A DNA stretch of 64,000 bases from an uncultured Verrucomicrobiae bacterium (GCA_963769285.1 CAVYLE010000007.1:270709-334708), one strand, 5' to 3'. Counted from the stretch's first letter, positions 22,051-64,000 are shown. Notes: generated from the sequence alone by a model not told the origin. Program-made: numbers and translations.

Positions 22051-22068
22051 TTGATGAAAACAAACTGA

Positions 22069-22800: not shown

Positions 22801-22864
22801 AGTTATTTTTGTTGTTTTCTAAATTACTGTTTTCGTTGTTTTGATGTGTTCTCCTGAAATATTA

Positions 22865-24129: not shown

Positions 24130-24319
24130 AACACAGCACGGCGAAGCCGCAATCCGCCACTGCCCGAGGTGAAGGCGGGGGAATGAACGGCAGAGGAATA
24201 AGGGCTTTAAAATTTGGAGTCCATTCCCTTGCCGATCATTCCTCTGCCTGTTTCCTGCCAGGTTTGCGCCGCCGACCAAACGAGCTTGACTCAACATTGT
24301 TTTATGGGAAATTTCCCAT

Positions 24320-39089: not shown

Positions 39090-42000
39090 TCAGGTCCCGG
39101 CCGAGGATTTCATCGCGATTTCGCGCACCTGGCGCAAGTCCAGTTTACCGGTGCCGAGTTGGGGAAACGCTTCCACGCGGAAGAACTGGTCGGCGCGCGG
39201 CTTCCATAAATTCGGCAGGTCACATTGGGAAAGCTTTTCGAGGCAGGCCGGCAATTGCCCGTCCGCCAGTTTGTGCAGCACGACCAGGCGTTCGCCTTTT
39301 TTCTCGTCCGGCACGCCGGTGACAACAAATGTTTGTTCCGCCACGCCGGCCAGTTCGTGCAATTTTTCCTCCACTTTGATGTGCGGCACCATTTCGCCGC
39401 CGATTTTGCTGAAGCGGCTCAGGCGATCCGTGATTTGCAGGAAGCCGTCCTCGTCGATCGCCGCCACGTCGCCGGTGGTGTACCAGCCGTCGCGCAACAC
39501 CTCCGCGGTCTTTTCCGGCTGGCCGAGGTAGCCCTGCATGACGTTTGGCCCGCGCACGAGCAGCAGACCGGGCTGGCCGGTGGCCAGCGGCGCCTGAGTT
39601 TCCGGGTCAACGATGCGCACGGAAACGCCGGGGAGCGGATGGCCGATTTTGCCGCGTTTGGCACCGACTTGGCGGAAACCGGCGGAGCGGAAATCCGGGG
39701 TGTTCACCGTCACGGCCGGCGCACATTCGGTGCAGCCGTAGCCTTCCAGCGGTCGAATGCCGAAGCGTTCCTCGAACGCCGACGCCAGCCGGTCCGGCAA
39801 TTTCTCCGCCGCCGTCATGACCACGCGCAGGCTGCCGAAATCCTCCGCCGAACAACTGCGGAGGTAAAATTGCAGGAACGTGGGGGTGGCCAGGAGGAAG
39901 GTCACGCGGTAGTCGCGGACGAGCGGCCCGATGCTTTTGGCGTCGAGCGGATTCGGATAATACGCAACGCCGACACCCAGGACGGCGGGCAGACACAACG
40001 TGCCGGTGAAACCAAACGAATGAAAGAACGGCAGGATGCCGAGAAAGCAATCACGGCGGCTCACCCCGAACACCTGCTCCAGTTGCTCGATGTTCGAGCC
40101 GATGTTGTAATGGCTCAGCATCACCCCCTTGGGATCACCCGTGCTGCCGCTGGAGAAAATCACGGTGGCGAGATCGTCCAGACCGGTTTTCGTTTCGGCG
40201 CCCAGCACCCGTTGCACCACGCGATCCGGCACCAGCCACGCAATAAGGAATGCGGCGAGCTTCTCGCCGAAGCCCGGCGCGGCCGCCACTTCCTCCAGCA
40301 ACACCATTTCGCCCGGCAGCTCGAGCTTCAATTTTTCCAGAACCACCTTCGAGGTGACAATGGTTTTGATGTCGCATTGCCGGATGCACGAGGCGAGCGC
40401 TTCCTCGGACAAGGTGTAATTCAAGTTCACCGGCACCTTGCCCAGCAGCATCGCCGCGTGATTGACCAGGGCCCCGGGCACCGAGGGCGGCAGCAACATG
40501 CCAACCATCTTCTGTCCCGCCCAGATGCGTTTCAAACGCCGGGCCAGGAAAATGGTTCGCCCGAGTGCGGAATAAAAATTCACCTTCGGATTTAGCGCGT
40601 CAGCCATGGCAAAGCGCAGGGGATGTTTGCGCGCGGCATGCACGAAGGCGATGGGCAACGAACGCATCCGCGCCTTCCGGCCTTGCCATGCCTCGACGAG
40701 AAGCTTTTGCACCGCCGAGCGCACTTCGAACGGCGTCGCCGTGTGCGGCAGCGGCTGGCCGTAGTTGATGGTAACCGGGTATGGCAGCCGCCGCGGCAGC
40801 TTCCACAAAAACCGGCCCTTTTGAAAACTGAAGACACTGCCCCACACACCATCGAGCCCGACGGGAATGATCGGCGCCTCAACGTCTTTCATGATGCGCT
40901 CGAAACCGCGCCGGAACGGCAACAGCAGGCCGATGCGTGTAATCTGCCCCTCGGCAAAAATACAGACCACTTCGCCCGCGCGAATGGCGTCGCTGGCTGT
41001 TTGCAGCGCCTGGATCATCTCGCGCGGACGCTGTTCGGATGAAATTGGAATCACGCCGAGGATCCGGGCGAACGGCTTCATCCAGCGCTGTTCGTAAATG
41101 TCCTTGAACATCATGAATCGCACCTGCCGGTCGGTCGAAGCGAGCAGCAGCAGGGCGTCCACGAACGAAACGTGGTTGCAGACAAAGAGCGCGCCGCCCT
41201 TGGCGGGGATGTTATCGCGGCCCTGAATGCGAATCCGGTAAATCGTCCGCGTGAGCAGCCAGAGGATGAACCGCAGCAGGGCGTCGGGCAGCAGAAACAA
41301 AACGTAGATGGCGCCCGCCAGCGTCAACACGCCGCCGAAAAGAAAAATCTGGCCAGGCGACATGCCGGCCACGTCCGCCAGCAAATAATACGCGCCGGAC
41401 GCGAAAAAAATGCCCACGAACGAAAGCAGGTTCGCGGCTGCGAGCACCTCGCCTTTTTTCGCCGGGTCCGGCCGGTGTTGCAACAACGCCGCGATCGGCA
41501 CGATGAAAAAGCCGCCGGTGAACCCGAGCAATGACAGCTGGACGAGGGCGGCGTTCACGGACAAACCCGGCACGGACAGCCAGGCGGAAACCAGCGACAT
41601 GCCAAAGGCGCCGAGCGGCACAAGGCCGTATTCGATTTTCCCGCCGGAAAGATAACCGGCAGCCGCGCTACCCAGGCCGATGCCGAGCGCGAGGGCAATG
41701 CTCAACTGGCCAATGCCGATTTCGTCCAGGTGCAGAATTTGCGCGCCATAAAAGAACACATTCAACTGGAGCAACTGGCCCAGGAAGAAGAAATACGTAT
41801 TGCCGAGAAAGGCGAGGGTGAGTGCGCGGTCGCGGCGAACCAGCCGGAGTTGCGCGAACAAGTCGCTTAGAAAATTCGCGCGGAATTTCCGGCCGGGATC
41901 GGCGGCGGGCACGCGGGTGATGCCGAGGCTCGTGATGAAGCCGATGACCGCGAGCGCAATCAAAATGCTTCCCGACCAGGTTTGGTGTCCGTGAAAATGT

Positions 42001-42563
42001 TTCGACATCGAGGCCGCGGCGACGGTCCCGAGGATGATGGCCATAAATGTGCCGAGTTCGAGCAGGCCGTTGCCCCACGATAATTTCCGCTCCGGCAGCA
42101 ATTCCGGCAGGAGGCCGTATTTGGAGGGACCGAAGAACGAACTGTGGACGCCCATCAAAAATACGCAGCCCAACAGCATCGGAATCTGGTTCAACCAAAA
42201 GCCCGCTAGCGCGAGCAGCATCACGCCCATTTCAAAAATTTTCACGCTCACGCTGATGGTCCGCTTGCTGAAACGGTCGGCGAAAAAGCCGCCCGCCATC
42301 GAAAACAAAATGAACGGCAGTGAAAACAGGGCGGTGACGAGTTCGCCAACACGATGCAACTCGGTGGATGACACGTTCATGCCGAGAATCATGAACACGA
42401 CCAGCCACTTCAGGACATTGTCGCTGAACGCGCCCTGGAATTGAGTGACGATGAGACTCCAGAAGCCGCGAAGATTTGATTCGGATTGCCGGCTGATGTC
42501 TTTGGGTTTGGTCACGGCGGCAAAGCTAACCATTTGCGCGCCGAATTGTGAATTGAAAAACAT
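39090..42563 (-). CDS. aas: Triple fusion: LplT-like MFS lysophospholipid transporter + PlsC-type acyltransferase + acyl-ACP/CoA synthetase (Aas-like)
   Basis: About 12 TM helices at the N-terminus. The middle has [12 protein letters not shown] (HX4D) and FAEG. The C-terminus has AMP-binding motifs [22 protein letters not shown] and TGD...DEDGFL.I.DR. Confidence 0.85.
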
Positions 42564-49835: not shown

Positions 49836-49950
49836 CTTTTGGGTGGAAACGTTTTGAATGGTGCGGATGCGATTGTGCTGGAACGACGAGCGGCTTTTGG
49901 CTCGCGCCAGCGGGCTTGGCTGCTACAGTCCTGCCGGTATTTCGTGCCCG

Positions 49951-52458
49951 ATGGACCCATCTACGGCCAGCGCTGAAAGCTTGTTTGCCCGTGCAATCGA
50001 ACTGCCCGCCGGCGCCGCGCGCGACAAATTCGTGGCGGCGCAGTGCGTCGGCGACCCGGTGCTGTGTCGTGAAGTCGAGTCACTGCTTCGCGCGCATGAT
50101 GCCGCCGGTGATTTCCTGCGCGTGCCTTCCGAGCGGCCCGATTCCCGACGTAGCCGGGCCGCCACCACTCCGCTCCAGGGCACGGTGGCCTTGAACGCAG
50201 CGGCGTACGCGGAAGCTTTCTTGCGCGACACCGGCGAAGACGCGGGCGGGCACGTTGAAAACTATATCGCGACGCTGCCGGAAGCAGTGCGGCGGGAAGT
50301 GCATGAACGCATCGAGGGCGGCCTGCGCGTGCGGCAATTGCGTGCCCGAGCGGAACCTCCCTCCGCCGAACTCGAAGAACCGCCGCCGCATCTGCCGGGA
50401 TTCCGCATCGAACGCAAACTCGGCGAAGGGAGCCTGGGCGTGGTTTATGCCGCGCACGACGAAAAACTCAACCGTCGCGTGGCCGTCAAAGTCCTGCGCC
50501 GCCGCGCGGATGAACCTGTCCGGCGCCGCGTGCTCAACGAGGCGCGCAAGGCCGCCGCCCTCGGCGACCCGGCTATCGTCACCATTTTTTCGGTCCTCGA
50601 TGAAACCGATCCCCCGGCAATCGTAATGGAGATGGTGGAAGGCTTTTCGCTCAACCGTTTTGCAGCCCAGCTCAATTTTGAACAAAAAGCGCGCCTGTTG
50701 CGCGAGGTGGCGCGCGGCCTCGCGGTCGCCCACGAACACGGCCTGGTCCATCGCGATCTCAAGCCCGACAATGTCATCGTCGGCCCCGATCTGCGCCCGC
50801 GCATTCTGGATTTCGGACTGGCGCTGTCGCTGGAGGAAGCCGGCCGGTGGGGCGGCGGGTTTGAAGGCACTCCGCTTTACGCCTCACCCGAACAGGTTCG
50901 GGGCCAGCCGCTGACGGCGTCGTCGGACGTGTTCTCCCTGGGCAGCTTGATGTTCAAGGTGTTGACCGGGCGGCCGCCGTTTGCGGGAGAAACCACCAGC
51001 CAGGTGCTCGAAGCCATTGCCACCACCGCACCGCCGTTCCTTCGGGAAGTCGCGGTGGGCGTGCCCGAAGATTTGCAGGCGGTCTGCCTCGCGTGCCTGG
51101 CGTGGGACCCGGCGGACCGCCCCGCGGCTTCCGAAGTCGCGCTGGAACTGGGCCGCTTCCTCGTTGGCGAACCGGTGCGGCTCAAGCCGAAACTTTACGA
51201 TGACCTGCTGCGTCGCAGCATCAGTGAATACTCAACCCAGGCTCGCGGGTGGGAAAGCCAAAGCATCATCTCGCGGGACGAACGCGATGCCCTGGAGGTC
51301 GTCCATCGCCGGCTGCTCGCCGACGAAGACCACTGGATCATTGACGCGCGTCGGATCACGCCGTTGCAGACGATTCTTTCCGGCGCCACCTGGCTGGCGG
51401 TGGTCGCGACGGTGTTGACCGTTTGGATGCTGCGGAATGAACTCGGCCCAACGTGGCGATGGATTTTGCCGACGTATTTTACCTTGACGCTTTTGCTGGC
51501 GGGTCACATCGCGCGGCGGGAGCGCGAGCCGCTGGCGGCGGCCACGTTTCTGGCCGGGGCCGTTCTGGCCATCGCGCCCTGCATGCTGGCATTGCTGGCC
51601 GAGCTGCACGTCTTCACCGCGCCGGCACCGGGCGTGAAACAGCTTTTTGCCGGAACCTTTACCAACCAGCAGGTGCTGGCGGCTTCGTTCACGGCGCTCG
51701 CCGTGTCGGTGTTCGGTTTGGGCCGGCTGCGAATGACGGGCTTTGCCTGGACCACCGCCTCGCTGGCTGCCATCAGTTACGTCAGCTTGCTGTTGTGTTT
51801 CAACTGGCTCGATAAAAAAACGGAAATCCAGGCGCTGTGGTGCCTGCCGCTGGCTGCGATGGAGCCGGTGGCGCTGGTGCTGGAGCGAAAAGGCCGCGTG
51901 CGCTGGACGTTGCCATTTCACCTGGTGGCGCTCGTAGCGCTCGTGGTCGGACTCGATGTCATCGCACTGAACGGGCCCACGCTGAAGATGCTCGGTGTGG
52001 ACGGCGCACGCTGGCCGTATTTCGATCACCAGCGGCTGGACGCGTTTTCGATTGCACTGAACGGCCTGTTTTTCCTGGTGCTGATGCTGCTTACGGAACG
52101 CTCGGCGAGCCTTGATTTGCGGCGCGCCAGCAAACTGCTGGAGGTGCTGGCGATTGTCCACACCTTGAGCGCGCTGTTCGTCAATGCGATGGGGCACCGC
52201 AACGGCGCTCAAGTTCGCGTGGACGTGTGGCTTTATCTGATTGCGGCGGGGTTGTTCATGATTCTGGCGCCGTTCCGTTCGCGGTGGCGGCTGCTGGTCG
52301 GCGGACTGGCAGGCTGTGGACTGGGAAGCTACCTGCTGGTGGAGCTGGGAATCGTGAACCGCAAACCGTTCATCATCGGCCTCGGTTTTGCCGGGGTGCT
52401 GGTGGCACTGGGAACGTTTGCCTATGTGCGGCGAAGGGCGCAAGCAAAAAGACGGTAG
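49951..52458 (+). CDS. Ser/Thr protein kinase with a large C-terminal polytopic membrane domain
   Basis: ATG 49951 (MDPSTASAESLFARAIELP...). Kinase motifs: LGEGSLGVVY, VAVKVL, HRDLKPDNVIV, DFGLA, GTPLYASPEQ. About 10 hydrophobic helices lie in the last ~350 aa. Confidence 0.85.
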   Translation: MDPSTASAESLFARAIELPAGAARDKFVAAQCVGDPVLCREVESLLRAHDAAGDFLRVPSERPDSRRSRAATTPLQGTVALNAAAYAEAFLRDTGEDAGGHVENYIATLPEAVRREVHERIEGGLRVRQLRARAEPPSAELEEPPPHLPGFRIERKLGEGSLGVVYAAHDEKLNRRVAVKVLRRRADEPVRRRVLNEARKAAALGDPAIVTIFSVLDETDPPAIVMEMVEGFSLNRFAAQLNFEQKARLLREVARGLAVAHEHGLVHRDLKPDNVIVGPDLRPRILDFGLALSLEEAGRWGGGFEGTPLYASPEQVRGQPLTASSDVFSLGSLMFKVLTGRPPFAGETTSQVLEAIATTAPPFLREVAVGVPEDLQAVCLACLAWDPADRPAASEVALELGRFLVGEPVRLKPKLYDDLLRRSISEYSTQARGWESQSIISRDERDALEVVHRRLLADEDHWIIDARRITPLQTILSGATWLAVVATVLTVWMLRNELGPTWRWILPTYFTLTLLLAGHIARREREPLAAATFLAGAVLAIAPCMLALLAELHVFTAPAPGVKQLFAGTFTNQQVLAASFTALAVSVFGLGRLRMTGFAWTTASLAAISYVSLLLCFNWLDKKTEIQALWCLPLAAMEPVALVLERKGRVRWTLPFHLVALVALVVGLDVIALNGPTLKMLGVDGARWPYFDHQRLDAFSIALNGLFFLVLMLLTERSASLDLRRASKLLEVLAIVHTLSALFVNAMGHRNGAQVRVDVWLYLIAAGLFMILAPFRSRWRLLVGGLAGCGLGSYLLVELGIVNRKPFIIGLGFAGVLVALGTFAYVRRRAQAKRR

Positions 52459-52652
52459 CGCTGTCCGAGGGGAAAACATTGAACATCCACCAGTCTTCGC
52501 TGCGCTTCGCCTCGGCAAGACATCGAACATCGAACTTCGAATTGTATGATGGCGGCGTAGCGGCGACTCGGCAGAGCGCCGCAAACTTTTCTTCCTTCAG
52601 CAGCGTAAAATCCGATTCCGAAGATAGAAATGCGGCTTTCTGCCGAAAGCCG

Positions 52653-53237
52653 CTACGCGTTTTTGACCTCGCGATACAACCACGCCCGCGCATAGGCCCA
52701 ATAACGTTTTGCCGTGGGTTCCGAAAGGTTGAGAACCTTGGCGGCTTCTTCAATTGTCAGGCCGACGAAAAACCTCAGCTTCACCAGGTCGGCCTTGACG
52801 GCATCATGCACGGCCAAACGCTCCAACGCCTCGTGCAACGCCAGCAATTGGTCGTCGTCCATGCCAGCGGCGAGTTCCAGACTGTCGAGATCGAGAGCCA
52901 CCCGTTCGGCCTGGCCGCCGTGGCGGGCCGCCTTTTTGCGGCGGGCATTGTCAATCAGGATGCGGCGCATGGCCTCGGCGGCGGCGGCAAAAAAATGGGC
53001 GCGATTTTGCCAGGCGGGTTGCTGGTCCCCGCCGAGGCGAAGCCACGCCTCGTGGACCAGCGCGGTGGCCTGAAGCGTCTGACCCGGAGCTTCGCGGGCC
53101 ATTTTCTGCGCGGCGAGTTTGCGCAGTTCATCATAGACCAGCGGCAGAAGCCGGCTGGCAGCCTGGGAATCACCCCGCTCAATTTGCCGCAACATGACGG
53201 TCAGTTCGCTCACGGGAAAAAAATTACCGGAATTCAA
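52653..53237 (-). CDS. ECF-type sigma-70 factor (kinase-associated ECF-like)
   Basis: Region 2 (LLPLVYDELRKLAAQKM...ATALVHEAWLRL) and region 4 (VKLRFFVGLTIEEAAKVLNLSEPTAKRYWAYARAWL). It is convergent with the kinase gene. Confidence 0.85.
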   Translation of the reverse strand: MNSGNFFPVSELTVMLRQIERGDSQAASRLLPLVYDELRKLAAQKMAREAPGQTLQATALVHEAWLRLGGDQQPAWQNRAHFFAAAAEAMRRILIDNARRKKAARHGGQAERVALDLDSLELAAGMDDDQLLALHEALERLAVHDAVKADLVKLRFFVGLTIEEAAKVLNLSEPTAKRYWAYARAWLYREVKNA

Positions 53238-53546
53238 AGCGGCAAAGAAGCCCGGAATCCATACCGTGAATGGGCGTCACACCGATTGAGCGCGGCCCTG
53301 ACGATGGAGTTCAAGCTTCAGCCTGCTTCAGGCATCGCGTCAGCTCGTATCATGCTGGATACGTTAAAGCCGTACCCGCCGCGACCGAACTGCGCCACCG
53401 CTGCACTCCGCCCAGGTTGCCGCTCCATTCCGGCAGCCAAGTTTCGTTACTCCGCAGAATTGAATGGTGCGACCAGAGCGGCGTTGTATTTAATGCGCGA
53501 TCTTCATCACGGGAAAAAGGCTGCCGCGAACCCGCACAAATTTCCA

Positions 53547-54758
53547 TCATCGGTGCAGACTTACAGTGAAAACTTCTGCCCCGACTATCAATTGCGGTTC
53601 AGTGTCATTGAACGCCTTCATCCCGGCGACAATCTTTCGAGGAACTCCCATGCCCATGTGCTCCAAGTAACCGTAATCCCGCATTACGTCTTTGATCAGT
53701 TGGTTTCTTGCAGCACGACAACCGGCAATCATCATCGCCGGAGTAATACCGTTGGGAAGCCGTCCAGGGGAACGGATTTCAAGACGATCAGCAAAGATTG
53801 AAAGTTGAACATCTGTTGCGGAGAGAAGGTAATCGCGATGAACTAAAGCGTTGACAATAGCTTCACGCAAAACCCCGACAGGGAAACCATCCTTTGTAAC
53901 GCGGCGGACTCCATTCTCCATTACGGTCTGATCCGGAATGTGGCGCTTAACGAAGTCCACACAACTTTCGATCAAGCCGTTTTCCACTATACCCGCCTCC
54001 GAAAGGAGGGGTAACATTGGTCCCCGAATTGGCAAACGCTCGTTGGCTGCATAATCAGGCTGATTCCCAGGGTAGCTCACCGCGTCTATGCCAGCCTGTG
54101 GCAAGAATCGGTTTGGCTGTTTGCCGAAGAGAAGAATGCCGGCGACCGTGCAAGAGTAACCAGCTTCACTCATCGCCATGAGTTCGGTATTTTCCAACAG
54201 GCGCTGCCATCCCGTCCGATCCTGATCTTCCGGCACGGCCTGCTCCCGAATTTTAACGAAATAATCTTTGAGCCGCCGTATGTCGAGGGCATCAAACGAA
54301 GCTCCGGAAACGGGGCGCGTCTCCAATCGAAACAAGCCTCGCTGCTGGAACAATCTCTCTAATTCCTCTTGGCTGGCCTCCCGCGATTCCGTGCCCACTC
54401 GAATGTAATACGTGCGCCCATTATTGTGCCAAACAGCATGAACTGTCCACCCGGGGTCAATTTGAATCACGGCTACCGTCCTGCCATTGTCCACATCACG
54501 GACGAGTTCAAAGTATGGTATGATCTCCGGCCGTATTTTGTCTCGACAGACCGTCATAACCCACTCTTCCGGCTTTGGCCGAACGACGCCCGAAACAGCA
54601 CCTTCGTCTTCGACGCCCAACAGGATTCTTCCGCCATGTAGGTTCGCCAAGGCGACTATTTCCTTGGCCAACGCTCGCGGTTCAATGTCGTCGCGCTTAA
54701 ACTCGACACCAGAGCTCTCACCGTTATGGATAATTTCAAGCAGTTCTGTCTTTGTCAT
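53547..54758 (-). CDS. AlbA_2 (Schlafen-like) + HATPase_c_4 protein (often mis-annotated as RecG-like / transcriptional regulator)
   Basis: N-terminus ESSGVEFKRD...ALANLHGGRILLGVEDEGAVSGV (AlbA_2 pattern). C-terminus LREAIVNALVHRDY...RLEIRSPGRLPNGIT (HATPase_c_4 pattern). The start lies 5 nt after the stop of the upstream ATPase gene. Confidence 0.8.
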   Translation of the reverse strand: MTKTELLEIIHNGESSGVEFKRDDIEPRALAKEIVALANLHGGRILLGVEDEGAVSGVVRPKPEEWVMTVCRDKIRPEIIPYFELVRDVDNGRTVAVIQIDPGWTVHAVWHNNGRTYYIRVGTESREASQEELERLFQQRGLFRLETRPVSGASFDALDIRRLKDYFVKIREQAVPEDQDRTGWQRLLENTELMAMSEAGYSCTVAGILLFGKQPNRFLPQAGIDAVSYPGNQPDYAANERLPIRGPMLPLLSEAGIVENGLIESCVDFVKRHIPDQTVMENGVRRVTKDGFPVGVLREAIVNALVHRDYLLSATDVQLSIFADRLEIRSPGRLPNGITPAMMIAGCRAARNQLIKDVMRDYGYLEHMGMGVPRKIVAGMKAFNDTEPQLIVGAEVFTVSLHR

Positions 54759-54763
54759 TGTGT

Positions 54764-57451
54764 TCAGTAGCCGTATTTAAGACGACGGATTTCGAATGCT
54801 TCCCGCCCGCCCTCAAGCACTTCGCCGATATTGTCGCGAACAGCTGGACAATCAATAGAGCCGAGCCAGTCAGGTGGAACCATCGCGTGCCCCGCTCCGT
54901 CAGGCTTAAGCGTTACAACCAACTCCGCATCACCCAGTACAGGTATGTTGGCATTATGGGTCGCGAAAATGAATTGTCGGCGTTCCTTCTCCTCTCGAAT
55001 TTTTGGAACGATTCCGTCTGTAATAAACCTGTTGTCCAAATCGTCTTCAGGCTGGTCAACAATAAGTGGAGCATCGGACTCCAACAGCAGGAGAAGCAAC
55101 ACGGCAGTGGCCTTTTGCCCGGTGGACAGGTTTTCCAAATTTTGCCAGATGGGTGGTTGGCTATCGGCCGCAAGATTAAGCTGAAGGCCTGTGGGAGTCG
55201 GAAATTCCAACTCTTCCATCTTCATGAACGTCTCCTCCGACGCTTTCGCCACCCGATCTGCTTGAACCGCCGTTAGCCCGAAAGATTCTGTCAGCTTCGC
55301 AGCACCTCCACGACAAGCAGTAACGAACTCAGGCAGTGAGAAATCCTCTCGTTCCGAGAGCCGGTCAATGGTCGTCTGAAGCTGTCCGCCTACTTCATCG
55401 CGGAGCAAATCAAAGAGTGGATCGCGATTCCCACCAGCAACCACATTGACACGAACAACGCCTTTTAGTTTGTTGGTTACCTTTTTGGCGGCGCGCTCCA
55501 AACTTCGGGCGTTTTCAGCTTTGGCTTCTTCCCATTCCAATAATAATGAATTCCGTTCTTGAAGTGCGTTATCCAGAGACTTCTTCAGGGTTCGGCGGCG
55601 ACCGGACAGTGGGGTAAGCTCTTCGATTTTTCTTCGCAAACGCACAAACTCTGATGCGTCCAACTTGCTTACCGTCTTTTGAACTTCACGCAGGATGCGT
55701 TCAATCTCGGCAGTTGACGCCGCTTTGCGCTTTTGCCAGTCCGCTTCAATTGAAGCGATGCTCGTATGCGCCTCTGCCAGTGCTGTTTCTAGCCCCCTTA
55801 GCGCTGCCCCGGCGTCTCGGTCGAATTTCTTCAACACAGAATCGCCGCGCCGCAAAATGGCTGCCCCGGGCAGACCATCAAGGGATTCCTCACTCAAGAA
55901 CTGCCGATCAATAGGAAGGTTGTCTGTCCACTCCGCGATCATTTCTTGAAATGGTGTTAACCGCTCTCGGATTGTTGCGAGAATTTTTTCCTCCCGAACC
56001 AAAAGCGACTGCAATTTCAACTTGTCCTCAAGCCCGGCTTCTTGAAATCGCTTCAGCGTCTCTTGCAGAGCAGGAAGACCGGCAAGTTTTTCTTCCACCA
56101 AGGCGATCTCTCTTCGAATTTCCAGGATACGACCCCGCGAAGTCTCCAGTTTCCGGCGAATCTCTACCTTCCGACTTTCCAGCGTGGCGTCTTCCTCGCG
56201 AAAACGGCGTAGCAAACCAGTTAACTTTTCTGGGCTCTTCGCAAGCTCCGCGATTTCGTGCTGTCCGTAGATTTCGACACCAGGCAGAATATCCTGCGGG
56301 CGCAGGTTGAGAACGGCTCCTGACTCGTCCTTCACCACAGGTGGGTTCGGAATGGTACGCTCAATCCAATACAACTTTTCAGCAGGACGGTGGGATCGCA
56401 CGAGAAGACGTATACGAGTCGCGCTACGAAGCGCATACTGAACAATTCCGTTGTGGTTTTTTTGTGCTTCTAGCCCTAACGGCTGAAGCCCCAACGCATA
56501 CCTGATGCTCTCTACCGACGTTGATTTGCCTGAACCGCGCCCTCCAATAAGCACGTTAAGATTCTCATTTAGACGAACCTCATCGCCATCCAAAAAGCCT
56601 CCTTGCCAACTAATGTATAGTATTTCTGAATGAGGCGTCTTTTCGGAGTCACCGACTAGGCGAATACGCACATCGGGGTCAATGAATCCTTGGCGAAGAC
56701 CCTCGACACTTACTCTCGACATTTTAATGAGAGTAACGGTGCCCAATCTGGAGAAATCCGAAGGAGATGAAACGTCTTCGGCGTTGATAATTGCTGGCAT
56801 TTTATCTCGGCAATATTGGGCATCTGTGTTTTCCAGAATTGGTCGTAAGTCTTCTGGCGCGCCTTTGACGTGTCCAGGGATGGAGCAAGCAAGCAGGTGA
56901 GCATTCCGCCAAACCCGCACACGTGTCTGGCCTTTCAAGACGCGGAGCAATCCCTTTTCCTTAATAACATGAGCGGCAATGCAGACGGTTCCCCATCGCG
57001 TTGCCTCTTCCAACAATGCCTCGCAGTCGTATTTGCCAGCAGGCGACGGCTCGTTTTCAGAATGGACACCACAGTCGTGAATCTTCGCTTGAATTTGGTC
57101 TGGCCCAGTTCCCGGCTCAAACAGGCAGAGAAAATGAACGCCGTCTTTAGTCTCGGCCTCAAAGCCGGGAAAAACAATCAGACCGGAAGCTTCTGCAGCT
57201 TGTATGAGGGAGAGAGACTCTCGAATGCGGTAGTGGTCAGTCACGCCAATCACTTCAATTCCAGTGATCTTGCAAGCCTCCACAACCTGCCGATTATATT
57301 CCGCCTCCGTGTTACACAGGAGCGGTCTGGCGTGGCGCTTCAGGTAGGCAAATGGATTAACCTGCAATGCACAATGGTAAAACCGTGCGCCGTTCGGCCG
57401 CGCTAGAATCTCATCCACTATCTTTTCTGTCTTCATAGCAACCAACTGCAT
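54764..57451 (-). CDS. PHP-domain phosphoesterase fused to an SMC/Rad50-like ABC ATPase with a long coiled coil (Ppl-like architecture)
   Basis: PHP-like motifs GVTDHY, PGFEAETKDGVHFLCLF, CIAAHV. Walker A LIGGRGSGKST. About 350 aa of heptad-rich E/K/L/R sequence. ABC signature LSTGQKA, Walker B LIVDQPEDDLD, H-loop FATHNANI. The start is ambiguous (ATG 57451 or 57436; the track ORF begins at TTG 57469). Confidence 0.8.
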   Translation of the reverse strand: MQLVAMKTEKIVDEILARPNGARFYHCALQVNPFAYLKRHARPLLCNTEAEYNRQVVEACKITGIEVIGVTDHYRIRESLSLIQAAEASGLIVFPGFEAETKDGVHFLCLFEPGTGPDQIQAKIHDCGVHSENEPSPAGKYDCEALLEEATRWGTVCIAAHVIKEKGLLRVLKGQTRVRVWRNAHLLACSIPGHVKGAPEDLRPILENTDAQYCRDKMPAIINAEDVSSPSDFSRLGTVTLIKMSRVSVEGLRQGFIDPDVRIRLVGDSEKTPHSEILYISWQGGFLDGDEVRLNENLNVLIGGRGSGKSTSVESIRYALGLQPLGLEAQKNHNGIVQYALRSATRIRLLVRSHRPAEKLYWIERTIPNPPVVKDESGAVLNLRPQDILPGVEIYGQHEIAELAKSPEKLTGLLRRFREEDATLESRKVEIRRKLETSRGRILEIRREIALVEEKLAGLPALQETLKRFQEAGLEDKLKLQSLLVREEKILATIRERLTPFQEMIAEWTDNLPIDRQFLSEESLDGLPGAAILRRGDSVLKKFDRDAGAALRGLETALAEAHTSIASIEADWQKRKAASTAEIERILREVQKTVSKLDASEFVRLRRKIEELTPLSGRRRTLKKSLDNALQERNSLLLEWEEAKAENARSLERAAKKVTNKLKGVVRVNVVAGGNRDPLFDLLRDEVGGQLQTTIDRLSEREDFSLPEFVTACRGGAAKLTESFGLTAVQADRVAKASEETFMKMEELEFPTPTGLQLNLAADSQPPIWQNLENLSTGQKATAVLLLLLLESDAPLIVDQPEDDLDNRFITDGIVPKIREEKERRQFIFATHNANIPVLGDAELVVTLKPDGAGHAMVPPDWLGSIDCPAVRDNIGEVLEGGREAFEIRRLKYGY

Positions 57452-57922
57452 CTTAACAAGCCTACGCAAACTCGCATTGAGAATAGCAGATTATGCCCAA
57501 CGGCGTCACGAAAAAGCCGCTTCTAAAAAACCCCGACTCGTTTGGCTCGCGTGGCGGCGGCAAGGGCGCGGATATCCGGCAATTTGGGACGTGAAATGCT
57601 CGAAAAGTTGGAGTTTTAATTCGATTGCGCTACGGCAGCCAACGGCGACCGGAAATCCGCCGGCATTAGCTTTGATTGCACGTTGCGTTGTGAATTTTTC
57701 CCCCATTTCTTTTCCCAATCATCCAGCGACGGTACAGTAACTTCGGCGTGTTTCGAGTAGGCGTGATGCACCGCCTTGAAATTGTGCCCCAATATCGCGA
57801 ATGCTCACGGGCAGACGATCATGCCGGACACGCGAACTCAACGCCTGCAAACTCCACGTTTAGCCCCGGTTAATGTCCATCGCCACTCCGAGGCAACCGA
57901 TTTCCCTGCCAAGGCAGGCGAC

Positions 57923-58471
57923 TTATCGCGTTGTATCCTTCATCGCCTCGGCGTAGGGTTTGCCGTCCACGAACACTTCCTTGAGGCTCGCGCGGCCGGA
58001 CTTGGAGACGACGGCCTGCGCCGTCAGCTTGCCATGCGGATTCCCGGTGCCCTCGGCGACAAAATATTGCTCGATGCCGTATTCCACATGAATGGAATTG
58101 GTGCTGTTGCTCCATCTCCACGCCACCTTGCCGCGCATCACCACCTCGTTCGCCGCCGGCGCGAGACTTTCCGTGCTGGCGCGCGTGACTTCCCAAAACT
58201 GGTTCGTCCCCGCCGGCGCGAGCGCCACGAAAATTTTCGCGCCGTAGGCCAGATCCGCTTTCAACGGCGGCGAGAACAGTTTCCCCGGCACGTCGCTGAT
58301 CTGGTAATTGAGCCGCACAAAATCGCCGCGCAGCGGGTCGCGCGGGTCCACCGGCCGGGTTTCAAGCAGCACGGTCTGACCGACGCGCAGGCGGTTTTCC
58401 TGCTGGACGACCGTGCCGAGCACCCACGCGGTTTGCAGCGCGAGAACGAGAATGACGAGTTTGGTTTTCAT
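57923..58471 (-). CDS. GDYXXLXY-domain protein (membrane-anchored)
   Basis: N-terminal TM helix. DPRDPLRGDFVRLNYQIS matches the GDYxxLxY signature (F in place of Y). Last gene of a three-gene minus-strand operon. Confidence 0.78.
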   Translation of the reverse strand: MKTKLVILVLALQTAWVLGTVVQQENRLRVGQTVLLETRPVDPRDPLRGDFVRLNYQISDVPGKLFSPPLKADLAYGAKIFVALAPAGTNQFWEVTRASTESLAPAANEVVMRGKVAWRWSNSTNSIHVEYGIEQYFVAEGTGNPHGKLTAQAVVSKSGRASLKEVFVDGKPYAEAMKDTTR

Positions 58472-58498
58472 GCGACCTCCGTGACTTTGTCAGAAATT

Positions 58499-59638
58499 TC
58501 ATTTCAAGCTTCCGGCCAGACGCTTGACGAGCAGTTGGTCACAACGGTCGCGGGAAATGACCCCCACGCTCTGGTAATCGGGATGATGCGAGTTCTGCAG
58601 GTCCACAATCACCCACTCGCCCTTTCGATCACACACCACGAAATGCACAAATCCCTGCTCCGAGTTTTGCGGATTGAAAACGTAGTCCGCGTAAAGCGCG
58701 TAGTCGGCGGCGGGCGGATTGGTCCGGACAAAATCCCGGAACTCACGCGCCAGATTCCACAGGGCCTTCATTTCATTGGGATCCGCCTGAGAAGCTTTGA
58801 GCAACACGGATTGCTTTGCAGCCACTGCCTTGCACAGTCCTGCATCGTTGATCATTTTAGCCAGGTCGGCGGCGCTCGCTTTGTCAACCGCATTGCCGCC
58901 AATCCGCGCCGGATAAACCAGCAGTGTCGCGCCGGGCAGCGCTTGTTTCATCGCCTGCTGGCGTTCGGGCAGGGCCGCCCGTTCATTTTCGGGCGGCAGG
59001 CCGCTCCGCTGATCCAAGAGGGCCGCCAGCTTGCCCGGTTTGGCCGCCTTGGCCGTTTCAGCGTTGAGGCCGAGCTGCGGACTCAGCCGTTCGACGAGCA
59101 GAACGGACATCGTCATCGGATCCCGTTCTCCCATTTTTTTGAACGCTTCGTCCTGCGGCGTCTGACGGTCCGTCCAGATGACCACGCCAGCTTGATCCAC
59201 AACCACCGCGCGCAGTTCGTTCAACCCGGTTTGATGGTTGCCATTGTATTCGGCATAAAGGGCGTAGCCGGTTGTGATTGGATTGGTCTTCACAAAGGCA
59301 CCAACGGCGGTGGCCAAACTTTCCAAATTCGTTTCAGCGGGTGTGAATGAAGTTTTCCCAAGTTCGATGTTTTTCAATCCCTGCTGCTCGAGCAGCACGC
59401 CCACCACCTCGGTCACGCGATCCCAAGGTTTGCCCGCCAGGCGCACGGGCAGGATGGTCAGCGAGGCGTCCGGCCCCTTGGACTTCATCAACTCCAACTG
59501 CTTCTGCTGCCCCGGCGCCATGCCGGCTTGTGGCTCGGCGGCAACCGGGAAACGACTGACACATACCGCGAGCAGGGCCATTGACAACGGCATGGCCACC
59601 GCGCGGAACGAACTGTTTGTTTTGATTGGATTTTTCAT
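58499..59638 (-). CDS. Secreted protein made of two homologous ~170-aa domains, function unknown
   Basis: Signal peptide (AVAMPLSMALLAVCVSRFPVAA). The two halves align: ...FVKTNPITTGYALYAEYNGN...LRAVVVDQAGVVIWTD versus ...FVRTNPPAADYALYADYVFN...VHFVVCDRKGEWVIVD. There is a 4-nt overlap with the upstream gene. Confidence 0.7.
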   Translation of the reverse strand: MKNPIKTNSSFRAVAMPLSMALLAVCVSRFPVAAEPQAGMAPGQQKQLELMKSKGPDASLTILPVRLAGKPWDRVTEVVGVLLEQQGLKNIELGKTSFTPAETNLESLATAVGAFVKTNPITTGYALYAEYNGNHQTGLNELRAVVVDQAGVVIWTDRQTPQDEAFKKMGERDPMTMSVLLVERLSPQLGLNAETAKAAKPGKLAALLDQRSGLPPENERAALPERQQAMKQALPGATLLVYPARIGGNAVDKASAADLAKMINDAGLCKAVAAKQSVLLKASQADPNEMKALWNLAREFRDFVRTNPPAADYALYADYVFNPQNSEQGFVHFVVCDRKGEWVIVDLQNSHHPDYQSVGVISRDRCDQLLVKRLAGSLK

Positions 59639-60876
59639 GCTTTTTCTCCTGTGGTTTGCGATTTGATTTGTTTCATCAAGGTGCGGCGTTTCTTCTCCAG
59701 ATAAACGCCGAAGACAATCAGGAACACGCCCGACACAACGAACATCAGGCCCGTCATCGCCATCGTGCCAAACAGGCCAAAATATGCCGAGATGATGTCC
59801 AGCCCGATGAACGCCACGCCGAGGTTGACGATGAAGCGCGAACGCAGTTGCAGGCCGGCCTGGATTTGCAGCAGGCAGAAAACAAACAACGCGAGACTCG
59901 CCACGGCGTTGACGGCGTCAAATCTGCCTGACCCAAACCAATGCCGCTCGCGCGGCGCGAAAAACGCCGCGCACAGCAGGCCCGCCACGACGGCCAGCGC
60001 ACCGGCCCAGGTGAAACGCCATTGCCGCGTCAGCCCCGGCAGGTTGCGGATGCCCGCCGCCGTCGTGACGACGGCCAGCGCCGCCAGCGCGGGCAGCAAC
60101 CAGCGGCATAAATTGGCGTCAGCGTGCGACCAGCTTAAAAAGCCGGCCCACGTCAGCGGATAAGCAAAGAACAGCAGCCCGAACGCGCCGATTTTTTCCG
60201 CGTCGGGCGCGAAGCCGGCAAACGACGTTCGCCGCAGCAGATAACCCACGCCAAGAAAATTCAAGCCGAGCAGCGCGTAAGCGAGCACCTGCGATTCGTT
60301 GCTGAAATAAATCAAGCTGTCACGCTCGTTGATTTCGCAGCCGAACCAGATGGAAAAGGCGGCGAGGAACAAAACGAACTGCGCCGGCGAGCGCAGCAGC
60401 CACGGCAGCGCGGCGATGCCAAGCATCCAGAGCAGAAAGGCGTTCGGCGTGCGGCTTTCGAGGTGATAAATCTGGCCGACGAGCGCGATGTTGGCGAGGA
60501 ACAGCGCAGAACCGAGAAATTGCAGCGCCTCGCCGGTCTTCCGGTATTTGCCTCGTGGCTGCGACGCCCCCGTCGCAGAAGATGCCGGCGACGAGGCGTC
60601 GCCTCCACCTTCTCGCAACCACCAGCCGAAGCCGTGCGCGCCGAGCATGAGCACAAGGCCAGCGGCGATTTTCACGCCGCGCGGGATGTCGTTCCAGTGC
60701 GCGGAGATGAGCAGCACGATGCCCGCCGCAATCAGCACCGCGCCGATGAAGGAAATGATGACGAGAAATTTGCCGCCTTCGTCCTCCTTGAGCTGGAAGT
60801 GTTCGACGATTTTCTGCCGCTGCTCATCGGTGATAAGCCCGGCCTCGTGAAGTTTTTGGATGTCAGCGTATTTCAT
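59635..60876 (-). CDS. DUF2157-like polytopic membrane protein
   Basis: Soluble N-terminal helix MKYADIQKLHEAGLITDEQRQKIVEHF followed by about 10 TM helices. This is the typical partner of GDYXXLXY proteins. Confidence 0.72.
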   Translation of the reverse strand: MKYADIQKLHEAGLITDEQRQKIVEHFQLKEDEGGKFLVIISFIGAVLIAAGIVLLISAHWNDIPRGVKIAAGLVLMLGAHGFGWWLREGGGDASSPASSATGASQPRGKYRKTGEALQFLGSALFLANIALVGQIYHLESRTPNAFLLWMLGIAALPWLLRSPAQFVLFLAAFSIWFGCEINERDSLIYFSNESQVLAYALLGLNFLGVGYLLRRTSFAGFAPDAEKIGAFGLLFFAYPLTWAGFLSWSHADANLCRWLLPALAALAVVTTAAGIRNLPGLTRQWRFTWAGALAVVAGLLCAAFFAPRERHWFGSGRFDAVNAVASLALFVFCLLQIQAGLQLRSRFIVNLGVAFIGLDIISAYFGLFGTMAMTGLMFVVSGVFLIVFGVYLEKKRRTLMKQIKSQTTGEKA

Positions 60877-61485: not shown

Positions 61486-64000
61486 CTAAGGCGAGCGGAG
61501 GCGGTAGAAACGACCGGGATAATTCGTCCACTGCGGATCGCTGAAACAGGCCGAGCCGCTGGTGAGCGTGTTGGTTCCCACCGGAAGCCACACCGGGTTG
61601 GCCAGATTCGTGCAGGCTTCCACCACAACGACCTGGCTGCTGAACCCGGTGAGGTTGAAGCCGAATTGATTCGCCTGCACGCCAAGCCCGGTCGGGCTGA
61701 TTTGCGGCGGCGGATTCCACTGCACCACCGGACGGGTGCCATACCACGAACTCCAGCCGGTGGCGACCGGCAGGCAATAGACGGTCGCATTGTAGTCATA
61801 GAGGAATACATACGAATCACCGCCGCTGGGGGCGTTCCCCATGAAATAGGCGCCCGTCAGGCTCGTGCAATAATAGAACGCATAGGCTCCGATGCTGGCG
61901 ACGCTGGCGGGGAACGTGACGCTGGTCAGGCTGGTGCAGTCTTCGAACGCCTCTTCCCCGATGTTGGTAACGCTGTTGCCGATGATGAGGTTGGTCAGGC
62001 TTGTGCAGCTTTCGAACGCCCCGTATCCGATGCTGGTGATACTGTTGGGGATCGTCACGCTGGCCAGGGGGCAGCCATAGAACGCCTGGTCCCCGATGCT
62101 GATGACACTGTTGCCGATGATGAGGTTGGTCAGGCTGCTGTCGGAAATGAACGCCGCCTCTGGGATGCTGGTGACGCCGTTGCCAATCATGACATTGGTC
62201 AGGCTGTAGCAACTGGCGAATGCCCCGATGCCGAGGGAGATGACGTTGTCGAGGATCGTGACGCGGGCCAGGTTCTTGGAGTAAAAGAACGCATCGTCCC
62301 CGATGTTGGTGACGGTGGCGGGGATCGTGTAACTGCCGCCGACACCGCCCGGAAATTGAATCAAGGTGGTTTGGCCCGCGTTAAACAAAACCCCGTTCAG
62401 GCTGCTATAGACGGGATTTGAGTGATCCACATTGATCGTAATCAGGCTGGTGCAGTAAAAGAACGCCTGGCTGCCGATGTTGGTGACACTGGCGGGGATC
62501 ATGACGTTGGTCAGGCTGCTGTCGGCATAGAACGCCTGGTTGCCGATGCTGGTGACATGGCCGGGGATCGTCACGCTGGCCAGGCTCGTGCACTCTTCGA
62601 ACGCACCGTATCCCAAGCTGGTGACGCCGCTGCCAATGGTGACGTTGGCCAGGCTGCTGCAGCCAAAGAACTCATCGTTTCCAATGCTGGCAACATTGTT
62701 GTCAATGGTGAGGCTGGTCAGGTTCGTGCAATAATTGAACGCCCCGTTTTCGATGCTGGTGACGCTGTCTGGAATGATGTAGCTCCCGGCCTTGCCCGCC
62801 GGATATTCAAGGAGCGTGGTCTGGCTTTTGTTGAACAGCACCCCGTTTGGACTGCAAAAGTAGAGATTGGCGGGATCCACTGCGATGTTGGTCAGGCTGC
62901 TGCAGTCATAGAACGCATCGTCTCCGATGGAGTTAACATTCTTGGGGATCGCGATGGTGGTCAGACCGCTACAGTCCCAGAACGCATCGAACCCAATGTA
63001 ACCGACTTTGCTGCCCATCGTGACATTGGTCAGGCCGGTGCAATAACTGAACGCATAGCCCCCGATGCTGGTGACGCTGTTGGGGATCACGACGGTGGTC
63101 AGGCCGGTGCAGTCGTCGAATGCATCCCACCCGATGCTGTTGACATTGTTGCCCATCGTGACATTGGTGAGGCCGTAGCAGTCTTCGAATGCATAGTCCC
63201 CGATGCTCGTGACGCTGTCGGGAATCGTATAATCGCCTTCCGGATTGCCCGCCGGGAATTGGACGAGCAGGGTCTGCCCCTGATTGAATAAGACGCCATC
63301 CACACTGCTGTAGAAAGAGTTGAGCGCAGCCACCGTGAAAGCGGCCAGACTGCTGCAGCCATAGAACGCATAGTCTCCGATGCTGGTGACATTATTGCCA
63401 ATCGTGGCATTGGTCAGGTCGTAGCACTCTTCGAACGCATCGTATCCGATGCTGGTGACATTGTTGCCGAGCATGATGCCGGTCAGATTGTAGCAGTAAT
63501 CGAACGCATAGTTCCCGATGTTGGTGACACTGCTTGGAATCGTCACGCTGGTCAGGCTGCTGTCCTCGAACGCGGAGTCCCCGATGCTGACGACCGGCAG
63601 GCCCGTGATCGTGCCGGGGATGCCGATGTCGCCGCCGGGGCCGCTGTAGCCGGTGATGATGATCGCGCTGTTAATGGTCGTGTAAGTGAAGTCCCCGGCC
63701 GGGGCCGGCGGGTTCTGCAACTCCGCCAGCAGACCGTCAAAGGACGAACTCCATCCTGCCGTGCCCGGCAGATAATAGATGGTCGCACGGTTGTCGCCGG
63801 CGAACACCGTCAAATCAGCGCCGGGAGCGTCGCCCAGAAAATAGATTCCCGTCAGGTTGGTGCAGCCGGCGAACGCGGAACTGCCGACGCTGGTGACGCC
63901 GGCGGGGATGGTGATGCTGGTGAGGCTGGTGTTGTTCTGGAACGCCCCGTTCGCGATGCTGGTAACCGTCAGGCCGTCAATCATGTCCGGGATGGTCGCG
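61486..64000 (-). CDS. BspA-type leucine-rich-repeat (LRR_5) surface protein, 5'-partial (continues past the window end)
   Basis: Dozens of ~23-aa units (IPxSVTSIGxxAFxxCxSLTxVT). There is no stop between 63984 and the window edge in frame. The C-terminal ~110 aa is a non-repeat domain. Confidence 0.85.
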   Translation of the reverse strand, partial: ATIPDMIDGLTVTSIANGAFQNNTSLTSITIPAGVTSVGSSAFAGCTNLTGIYFLGDAPGADLTVFAGDNRATIYYLPGTAGWSSSFDGLLAELQNPPAPAGDFTYTTINSAIIITGYSGPGGDIGIPGTITGLPVVSIGDSAFEDSSLTSVTIPSSVTNIGNYAFDYCYNLTGIMLGNNVTSIGYDAFEECYDLTNATIGNNVTSIGDYAFYGCSSLAAFTVAALNSFYSSVDGVLFNQGQTLLVQFPAGNPEGDYTIPDSVTSIGDYAFEDCYGLTNVTMGNNVNSIGWDAFDDCTGLTTVVIPNSVTSIGGYAFSYCTGLTNVTMGSKVGYIGFDAFWDCSGLTTIAIPKNVNSIGDDAFYDCSSLTNIAVDPANLYFCSPNGVLFNKSQTTLLEYPAGKAGSYIIPDSVTSIENGAFNYCTNLTSLTIDNNVASIGNDEFFGCSSLANVTIGSGVTSLGYGAFEECTSLASVTIPGHVTSIGNQAFYADSSLTNVMIPASVTNIGSQAFFYCTSLITINVDHSNPVYSSLNGVLFNAGQTTLIQFPGGVGGSYTIPATVTNIGDDAFFYSKNLARVTILDNVISLGIGAFASCYSLTNVMIGNGVTSIPEAAFISDSSLTNLIIGNSVISIGDQAFYGCPLASVTIPNSITSIGYGAFESCTSLTNLIIGNSVTNIGEEAFEDCTSLTSVTFPASVASIGAYAFYYCTSLTGAYFMGNAPSGGDSYVFLYDYNATVYCLPVATGWSSWYGTRPVVQWNPPPQISPTGLGVQANQFGFNLTGFSSQVVVVEACTNLANPVWLPVGTNTLTSGSACFSDPQWTNYPGRFYRLRSP

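Follow-up and report, generated by a model that had tools for sequence, protein, structure and literature searches.

Two adjacent genes on the minus strand of a 64,000-nt stretch of DNA from an uncultured Verrucomicrobiae bacterium (GCA_963769285.1, CAVYLE010000007.1:270709-334708; the whole stretch is called the window below) raise the question whether a protein that joins a PHP-type phosphoesterase to an SMC-like ATPase and a Schlafen-like protein together form an immune system, and whether such a pair has been described before. The initial annotation had been made from the sequence alone and had proposed a plausible new composite defence system. The genes are indeed a coupled unit and their relatives have a defence-like context, but the pairing is not new and already bears the name TrlF–TrlG. 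The window pair almost certainly is a member of the TrlF–TrlG family, and it represents a diverged copy of the named cassette from a sister clade, lacking the regulator gene, rather than a categorically new pairing. The idea of a defence module is plausible for this pair: an immune function of TrlF–TrlG is likely, and, on balance, the best explanation is that the pair is a horizontally acquired trlF–trlG copy that acts as a sensor–effector immune module of the abortive infection type. Gene structure, folds, family, synteny, mobility and defence context were computed, while the growth arrest (seen in another clade), the Ppl exonuclease and the Schlafen tRNase activity were taken from the literature.

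Organization and Family Membership of the Gene Pair

The trlF-like gene (54764-57451, minus strand, as are all features of the pair given below) encodes an 895-aa protein with a PHP fold and an SMC/Rad50-like ABC ATPase. Its stop codon (54764-54766) is separated by a spacer of 5 nt (54759-54763; TGA-acaca-ATG) from the start codon of the trlG-like gene (53547-54758), which encodes a protein of 403 aa with a Schlafen nuclease domain, a histidine kinase-like ATP-binding module and a C-terminal end of a DNA-binding type. The list of open reading frames (ORFs) confirmed the location and strand of both genes in the initial annotation, and the 5-nt distance given there was also found; this spacing fits translational coupling, and the two genes are probably coupled in this way. 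The motifs quoted there (GVTDHY, GFEAE..GVH, AAHV, GGRGSGKST, LSTGQKA, LIVDQPEDDLD, FATHN, ESSGVEFK and REAIVNALVHRDY) were all present in the translations. The start of the first gene had to be moved. The trlF reading frame is open up to a TTG at 57469, which would give the 901 aa assumed before, but the database cluster P0001, which is 100% identical to the window TrlF, has 895 aa, and thus the ATG at 57451 is the likely start.

The pair is flanked by an upstream non-coding region of about 470 nt (57452-57922) and a downstream intergenic region (53238-53546), which is the other edge of a segment with low GC content. The GC content is 0.525 for 53238-57922 and 0.59 in both flanks, and the GC content at third codon positions (GC3) is 0.52-0.54 in the pair and 0.70-0.80 in the neighbouring genes. 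The window pair is a horizontally acquired low-GC insertion between housekeeping genes. Direct or inverted repeats were not found at the island borders, and the only tRNA gene of the window, tRNA-Glu(CTC) at 20058-20132, is about 33 kb away from the pair. Promoter and terminator scans around the insertion gave results at chance level, the promoter scan being no better than shuffled sequences.

The window TrlF scored 495.3 bits against the NCBIfam model NF045780, "TrlF family AAA-like ATPase" (cut-off 350), with residues 26-900 aligned to model positions 1-944, and it has the architecture of the family, i.e., an N-terminal PHP fold and an ABC head that is split by a coiled coil and carries Walker A, signature, Walker B and H-loop. 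The family name comes from the "temperature restriction locus" (TRL) of Photorhabdus laumondii (Hapeshi et al. 2020, PMC7554251). The TRL operon consists of trlR (79 aa), trlF, which was annotated as a histidinol phosphatase, and trlG, which encodes an AlbA_2 + HATPase_c_4 protein and was misannotated as recG. Its transcription rises upon a temperature up-shift and it causes growth arrest at 36 °C. Every stable mutant that tolerated the higher temperature had a change in trlG (in total at least 16 distinct substitutions, stop codons and insertion sequence insertions), which abolishes the heat-induced growth arrest, and none had one in trlF, which is twice as large. While trlR is conserved in few taxa only, a Yersinia ruckeri plasmid pair is syntenic with all three Photorhabdus genes (all PMC7554251). 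The pairing had been regarded as undescribed; it is that of trlF–trlG of this locus, and the larger protein passed the curated NCBI model.

The window pair shares with TRL the two-gene core, the order and the orientation (trlF, then trlG), and both the TRL and the family of the window pair are patchily distributed, horizontally transferred and seen beside type I restriction-modification (R-M) genes. There are also clear differences. The window has no TrlR, the 79-aa protein that has an HTH_73 domain in the Yersinia ruckeri plasmid pair. Neither an HTH_73 regulator of this type nor a ribbon-helix-helix (RHH) regulator was found in 57452-57922 with the ORF list or with tblastn using RHH and TrlR queries. 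In addition, the two window genes are separated by 5 nt, in contrast to an overlap of 19-22 nt in the plasmid pairs of the other clade.

Domain Architecture of the Two Proteins

In TrlF, a PHP-fold phosphoesterase/nuclease-like domain (residues ~20-270; 56642-57394) is followed by the N-terminal half of the ABC ATPase head (residues ~276-420; 56192-56626), which was recognized by SMC_N and AAA_23 matches and contains the Walker A motif GGRGSGKST (56519-56545; G303-T311 are invariant in alignment A1). After an antiparallel coiled-coil arm (residues ~422-661; 55469-56188) comes the C-terminal half of the head (residues ~666-895; 54767-55456; AAA_21) with a helical insert, the signature LSTGQKA, the Walker B motif LIVDQPEDD and the H-loop FATHN; the columns L775-A781, V798-D806 and T831-N833 are invariant in the same alignment. 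The hidden Markov model (HMM) searches that had been proposed in the initial annotation gave a mixed picture. AAA_21 in TrlF and SLFN_AlbA_2 and HATPase_c_4 in TrlG were above the Pfam gathering scores, whereas SMC_N (34.5 bits, cut-off 40) and PHP (E 3e-3, 18.2 bits, cut-off 26.4) stayed below.

The PHP assignment is nevertheless supported independently by the homologues, by the similarity of the fold to that of Endonuclease Q (EndoQ) and by the alignment of the motifs. PF02811 (PHP) was detected in 16 of 17 diverse TrlF homologues. In the AlphaFold model (mean predicted local distance difference test score, pLDDT, 76.5) the N-terminal domain resembled EndoQ 7k30_A (Foldseek E 2.8e-5, 242 columns, root mean square deviation 4.9) and also EndoQ 5zb8; EndoQ is a PHP-fold nuclease. 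The metal site is remodelled in the window protein. As had been noticed before, the first HxH motif is replaced: Q30-V-N32 (57356-57364) aligns with H-I-H and H-L-H of other TrlF-family proteins, and D226-V-S stands for D-x-H, while D72-H73, E98, H106, H161 and D226 are kept.

The remainder of the TrlF model resembled the heads of SMC, JetC, MukB, Rad50, RecN and LmuB (Foldseek). This raises the alternative that TrlF is a housekeeping DNA-repair machine, similar to SbcCD/Rad50–Mre11 or RecN, and TrlG its accessory DNA-binding protein, in line with weak sequence matches to SMC, Rad50 and RecN heads and with databases that label some homologues 'DNA repair ATPase RecN' or 'RecG'. An ABC head with an inserted coiled coil is indeed shared with these proteins. 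However, the window coil is short: helices were modelled at 422-456, 459-471, 474-511, 530-593 and 599-661, which gives about 240 aa plus the helical insert and not the roughly 350 aa assumed before. The coiled-coil stretch contains no cysteine in the translation, and thus TrlF has no zinc hook (CxxC) of the Rad50 type. The score against Rad50_Sulf was 27 bits (cut-off 1000), and there is no Mre11/SbcD partner gene. The scores were far below the cut-off of every repair family. The patchy and mobile distribution, the atypical composition, and the presence on plasmids and within R-M loci are also at odds with a repair function, and 'recG' is a recognized misannotation (PMC7554251). We therefore consider a repair function extremely improbable. 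A search of the PDB by sequence yielded marginal SMC-head matches only and no solved TrlF relative.

TrlG contains a Schlafen/AlbA_2 domain at residues 14-128 (54375-54719; SLFN_AlbA_2, E 7e-18, 65.7 bits, gathering score 25.3) with the catalytic-type motif E14-x4-E19-x-K21 (ESSGVEFK, 54696-54719), which agrees with the Schlafen definition Ex4(E/D)xK (bioRxiv 2025.07.24.666596). E14, S16, E19, F20 and K21 are kept in at least 95% of 63 syntenic homologues. The HATPase_c_4 region (residues 316-401; 53556-53813; E 1e-19), which also matched PDB entry 3lmm, is directly preceded by a GHKL-type box, R298-E299..N303-A304..H307-R308-D309-Y310, which is likewise conserved in at least 95% of the 63 homologues. 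The best Foldseek match of the TrlG model (pLDDT 67) was the AlbA_2/HATPase_c_4 structure 3lmm, followed by human SLFN14, SLFN13, SLFN11, SLFN12, SLFN5 and the SAMD9 tRNase domain (E 1e-4 to 1e-2) and by a histidine kinase. Judged by its motifs, the window TrlG has a prokaryotic Schlafen nuclease domain with an intact catalytic-type motif, and an RNase activity is predicted. A plus-strand ORF of 524 aa (52227-53801), which overlaps trlG and the neighbouring sigma factor gene, had no Pfam match and was treated as spurious.

Linkage and Co-Inheritance of trlF and trlG

A scan of one genome per species revealed at least 501 relatives among 185,579 species genomes, and another 500 were found in metagenomes. 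Eighty genome loci (L001-L080) were analyzed; they represent more than 20 phyla, and one of them lies on an archaeal contig. It had been suggested to score how often an AlbA_2 gene is the immediate downstream neighbour of the ATPase gene: a TrlG homologue had this position in 67 of the 72 loci with room downstream, and the junction measured 2-12 nt in 63 of 68 loci. The pairwise distance matrices of TrlF and TrlG were correlated (Mantel r = 0.754), and none of 999 permutations reached such a high value. A lack of synteny in other genomes, which would have spoken against the initial proposal, was thus not observed. In a second clade (clade B, see below) TrlG was found downstream of TrlF in 56 of the 60 loci with room. 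The two genes are a tightly coupled, co-inherited unit.

These results bear on the alternative that two independent single-gene systems travel together, i.e., that TrlF is a nuclease/ATPase similar to Ppl and TrlG a Schlafen–histidine kinase (HisK) effector with a sensor of its own. Independent action of the partners is possible, because both also exist alone: solo TrlF is encoded on several plasmids and in a P2-like phage, TrlF occurs without TrlG in a BREX-like and in an Hma locus, and a Schlafen–HisK gene without TrlF is part of a type I R-M operon. Furthermore, Ppl works as a single gene (PMC12904381), and no other architecture is as common among bacterial Schlafens as Schlafen–HisK(-HTH) (bioRxiv 2025.07.24.666596). 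On the other hand, order, orientation and near-zero spacing or overlap are maintained in both clades across many phyla, the distances of the two proteins are correlated, and the active-site motifs of both shift together between the clades. Independence of the two genes is therefore regarded as improbable.

The five loci that lack TrlG after TrlF were inspected individually. In L004 TrlF stands alone in a BREX-like locus (DUF6079/BrxC-type ATPase, methylase, SNF2 helicase), and in L047 it stands alone in an Hma/BREX-related (BR) locus. In L068 the place of TrlG is taken by a 286-aa HEAT-repeat protein, and in L035 (an Azospirillum isolate) and L055 by proteins of 628 aa and 362 aa without Pfam or PADLOC match; these three replacements may represent effector swapping. 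Additional copies of TrlG were also seen. Two Nitrospirales genomes have a second copy in tandem after the first (L073:12438-13652, L076:12698-13912), with 45% identity to the window TrlG, and more distant TrlG-like copies are located upstream of the pair in three loci (L044:4273-5373, L051:701-1927, L057:165-1286). On the archaeal contig (L015, Candidatus Methanophagaceae) TrlG is encoded on the opposite strand and converges on TrlF, itself truncated at residue 852; either an inversion during assembly or a rearrangement of the copy may explain this.

Two Clades with Reciprocal Active Sites

With the plasmid pairs of E. coli, Yersinia, Pseudomonas and Klebsiella the window pair shares only 27% (TrlF) and 30% (TrlG) identity, and it belongs to a clade that is sister to these pairs of the E. 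coli/Yersinia type. The clade of the window is denoted clade A. Clade B was sampled with 80 loci (L100-L179) from a metagenome scan that was seeded with these plasmid pairs (L089, L090, L097 and L099 were also compared). PHP motif I was Q-x-N in all 78 loci of clade A and H-x-H in all 80 loci of clade B, a sample that is biased for this motif, as one search pattern contained 'ADFHL'. PHP motif II was D-H in clade A and N-H in clade B, and the last motif was D-x-[N/S/V/A] and D-x-K, respectively, while the other ligands (E98, H106, H161, D226) were kept in both. The Schlafen motif of TrlG showed the opposite trend, i.e., it was E-x4-E-x-K in clade A and E-D-[S/G/T]-x-x-Q-[F/Y/L]-K (Ex4QxK) in all loci of clade B but one. 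The PHP site of the solo TrlF from a phage is fully canonical (HIH … DAH). The contrast between the clades amounts to about two independent lineages and is suggestive, not statistical.

Photorhabdus most likely belongs to clade B. The HATPase_c_4 region of its TrlG (298-365) fits that of clade B (297-361) and not that of clade A (316-401), and the syntenic Yersinia ruckeri plasmid pair has a 79-aa HTH_73 gene upstream, like trlR. The growth-arrest determinant of Photorhabdus would then be a Gln-bearing TrlG, which the contrast between the clades does not explain.

For the clade of the window, the degenerate PHP site together with the intact Schlafen site suggests that TrlG is the effector. The reverse assignment would be that TrlG is mainly a transcriptional or nucleic-acid-binding regulator and that TrlF is the true nuclease effector. 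It would agree with the C-terminal part of TrlG, which is of a DNA-binding type, with the NCBI name of its homologues ('putative DNA binding domain-containing protein') and with clade B, in which the Schlafen motif reads Ex4QxK while TrlF keeps HxH. Yet the window clade has just the opposite combination of sites, and the toxicity in Photorhabdus maps to trlG and not to trlF (PMC7554251). The reverse assignment is therefore very unlikely.

Genomic Context of the Relatives

The question whether the neighbours of the relatives are known defence genes, raised in the initial annotation, could be answered positively: type I R-M, BREX-1, Hma and type III-like R-M genes were found. In 25 of the 80 genome loci the pair adjoins genes for a DUF1156 methylase, SNF2 helicase and HEPN-DUF499 protein or type III-like R-M genes (N6_N4 methylase, ResIII), nearly all of them co-oriented, and in about nine loci the pair is flanked on both sides by methylase/helicase/DUF499 or type III-like R-M genes. 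Gene sets with DUF1156 methylase, SNF2 helicase and HEPN-DUF499 protein are known as "Hma", or BREX-related, systems (PMC12839542). A plasmid copy of the pair lies between pglX and pglZ of BREX-1, and on IncC and IncA plasmids of Citrobacter, E. coli and Klebsiella the pair is located inside type I R-M operons. The copy of pNDM-EcoGN568, for example, has the gene order hsdR–trlF–trlG–hsdS. The wider TrlF family was present in 1136 plasmid records, and the pair itself was also found on conjugative plasmids. Another Verrucomicrobiota genome harbours a 78%-identical copy; its surroundings are unrelated to those in the window, and an MmeI-type R-M gene is close by.

A solo TrlF is encoded by the P2-like Yersinia phage vB_YenM_42.18 (L087:2992-5610), between gpA and gpQ. 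It is annotated as 'chromosome partition protein Smc', had 465 bits on the TrlF model, and also weakly matched the CehA/McbA, RNase RNM and nucleoside bisphosphate phosphatase PHP families. In P2, the gpA–gpQ region is the site of tin and old. No PHROGs family exists for TrlF. A scan of viral contigs yielded five distant matches without the PHP region, and thus TrlF is not a phage-borne clade.

The plasmids and the phenotype of Photorhabdus could also be explained if the pair were a module for growth control under stress or elevated temperature, or an addiction module similar to toxin–antitoxin systems, selected for host physiology or for the maintenance of mobile elements. The sole experimental phenotype is the TRL-dependent arrest at 36 °C, with temperature-induced transcription (PMC7554251), the family is frequent on plasmids, and some loci have an RHH or HTH regulator gene upstream, as in toxin–antitoxin operons. 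The window copy, however, lacks such a gene, and immune modules are typically inserted as members of this family are, between BREX or R-M genes and in a phage defence hotspot. In addition, heat sensitivity is a common side-effect of abortive systems. A growth-control or addiction module thus has a low probability. The small RHH (CopG-like) gene just upstream of trlF was observed in about 17 of the 80 genome loci (e.g., L022:7739-7906, L010:519-722, L033:6238-6408). It has the same position as the 79-aa HTH_73 gene, a probable TrlR, on the Yersinia ruckeri plasmid (L090:3691-3930); the window has neither.

Proposed Mechanism

TrlF and TrlG would be made from one mRNA, and the module, often inserted into R-M, BREX and Hma loci, would serve there as a second line of defence. 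TrlF would dimerize in an ATP-dependent manner and survey DNA, and it would keep TrlG silent until it is triggered by a cue such as free ends, foreign DNA or anti-restriction activity. The released TrlG would then cleave tRNA or rRNA, leading to growth arrest. The physical coupling of the two proteins, the role of TrlF as a restraining sensor, the trigger and the RNA target are what we infer, and this specific mechanism of restraint and release is tentative.

The mutants of Photorhabdus provide some information about the roles of the partners. If the loss of TrlF relieved the arrest, the chance to obtain no trlF hit among at least 16 suppressors would be about 0.3^16 (targets of about 2.65 and 1.16 kb). 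TrlF is thus not needed for TrlG to be toxic, as none of the suppressors, of which there are at least 16 distinct ones, has a mutation in trlF.

Several points weigh against the interpretation as an immune module. The absence of trlF mutants fits 'TrlF restrains TrlG' and 'TrlF is irrelevant to the arrest' equally well, and the sole phenotype is a temperature-dependent growth arrest, which stems from the other clade. The PHP site lacks three canonical histidine ligands in the tabulation of 78 loci, which makes a nuclease activity of TrlF uncertain, and the structure model of TrlG is of moderate quality (pLDDT 67). Solo TrlF genes are present on Xanthomonas, Staphylococcus, E. coli IncF and Bacillus plasmids as well as in the P2-like phage, and a distant Schlafen–HisK gene without TrlF was found in a type I R-M operon. 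The Pfam matches of the flanking ORFs revealed no defence genes beside the window copy, which had been put forward as a candidate defence module: it is not in a defence island, and it has genes for an ECF sigma factor and a Ser/Thr kinase on one side and a DUF2157/GDYXXLXY membrane operon on the other. Lastly, neither a test of an anti-phage or anti-plasmid function of any TrlF–TrlG pair nor a description of the pair as a defence system was found in the literature searched, and the supplements of the BREX paper (PMC12839542) contained chance letter matches only. PADLOC-DB v2.0.0 (2023) has no model for the pair beyond partial Ppl matches.

A broader version of the sensor–effector module is conceivable, though we regard it as doubtful. 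TrlF–TrlG would be a very widespread abortive back-up against phages and plasmids in R-M, BREX and Hma loci, unrecognized in the literature and defence libraries that were checked, the nuclease-like sites would have degenerated reciprocally, the SMC-like and the Schlafen proteins would divide or exchange the sensor and effector roles between the clades, and the temperature restriction of Photorhabdus would be autoimmunity.

The name and the phenotype of the pairing and the NCBI annotation of the larger protein were already known. If TrlF–TrlG is an immune module, a common system would be added to the defence catalogue, and the DNA sensing by PHP–ATPases of the Ppl type would be linked to the Schlafen tRNase immunity that is shared with humans and to the temperature restriction of Photorhabdus. 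The reciprocal active-site pattern offers a testable handle on which partner is the effector, and with the plasmid copies of E. coli and Klebsiella that lie in type I R-M operons, experiments should be straightforward.

Comparison with Named Defence Systems

Ppl (NF042955, PADLOC PDLC02208) shares with TrlF the architecture of a PHP head on a coiled-coil ABC-type NTPase, and the homology lies in the C-terminal ATPase half. However, the window TrlF reached 163.5 bits where 1000 are required, spread over two stretches of which the C-terminal one was better, and membership was rejected; the PADLOC model matched with E 8.8e-35, its best stretch covering residues 776-895 only. The relationship to Ppl suggested in the initial annotation is thus real, but the HMM scores place the ATPase into a different family, TrlF. 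Furthermore, Ppl is encoded by a single gene, whereas the window TrlF is paired with a Schlafen gene and has a remodelled PHP metal site. Ppl is an NTP-inhibited 3'-5' exonuclease for single-stranded DNA that senses 3'-OH ends (PMC12904381), and by analogy this end sensing is a plausible template for sensing by TrlF.

TrlG is similar to the HisKinase(-HTH) class of prokaryotic Schlafens (pSlfn; bioRxiv 2025.07.24.666596; PMC12839542), with which it shares the AlbA_2/Schlafen domain with Ex4(E/D)xK, the histidine kinase-like module and the association with BREX, BR and R-M loci. Bacterial Schlafens are phage-activated tRNases that cause abortive infection (bioRxiv 2025.07.24.666596), and at least 1017 taxa show a linkage of Schlafen–HisK–wHTH genes with BREX and DUF499-centred BR loci (PMC12839542). 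In contrast to the window Schlafen gene, which is strictly coupled to TrlF, the experimentally tested pSlfn systems consist of one protein each, which brings its own sensor domain (Ig-like, DUF262). A PHP–ATPase partner is not mentioned in the main texts of the two reports (bioRxiv 2025.07.24.666596; PMC12839542).

PARIS (AriA/AriB) and Lamassu (LmuB/LmuA) follow the same logic of a coiled-coil/ABC ATPase combined with a nuclease effector. According to the literature, the ABC/SMC-like sensor holds the nuclease until it is triggered. PARIS, too, is found within BREX and R-M loci, and the effector it releases is a tRNase. The head of the window TrlF structurally resembles those of LmuB and AriA (Foldseek). 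The window ATPase differs from both in having its own PHP domain and an effector of the Schlafen fold. Lamassu was rejected, as the LmuB match was weak and partial (E 1.7e-12) and the window contains no LmuA- or LmuC-like neighbour, and so was PARIS, as the AriA match (E ~3e-6) covered 70 residues only and no TOPRIM gene lies beside the pair.

Other Features of the Window

On one side of the insertion, a gene for an 866-aa Ser/Thr protein kinase (49858-52458, plus strand), whose C-terminal half looks hydrophobic, converges on the ECF sigma factor gene (Sigma70_ECF; 52653-53237, minus strand). On the other side, directly upstream of the insertion, lies a three-gene membrane operon (57923-60876, minus strand; GC3 0.70-0.80). 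According to Pfam it encodes a DUF2157 protein (59635-60876) and a GDYXXLXY protein (57923-58471), and between them a 379-aa protein without significant Pfam match (58499-59638), all on the minus strand.

A second patch of low GC content (0.46-0.49) was observed at 22000-24500, about 2 kb from tRNA-Glu(CTC). It contains a gene for a PEP-CTERM protein (22069-22800) and two ORFs without Pfam match (22865-23935 and 23854-24459), and may be another acquired segment. Two large genes on the minus strand were also noted. The first (39090-42563) encodes a 1157-aa fusion of MFS_1, acyltransferase and AMP-binding domains, which presumably resembles a lysophospholipid transporter joined to an acyltransferase/acyl-ACP (acyl carrier protein) synthetase. 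The second (61486-63984) encodes an 832-aa leucine-rich-repeat protein of the BspA type (LRR_5, E 2.5e-153).

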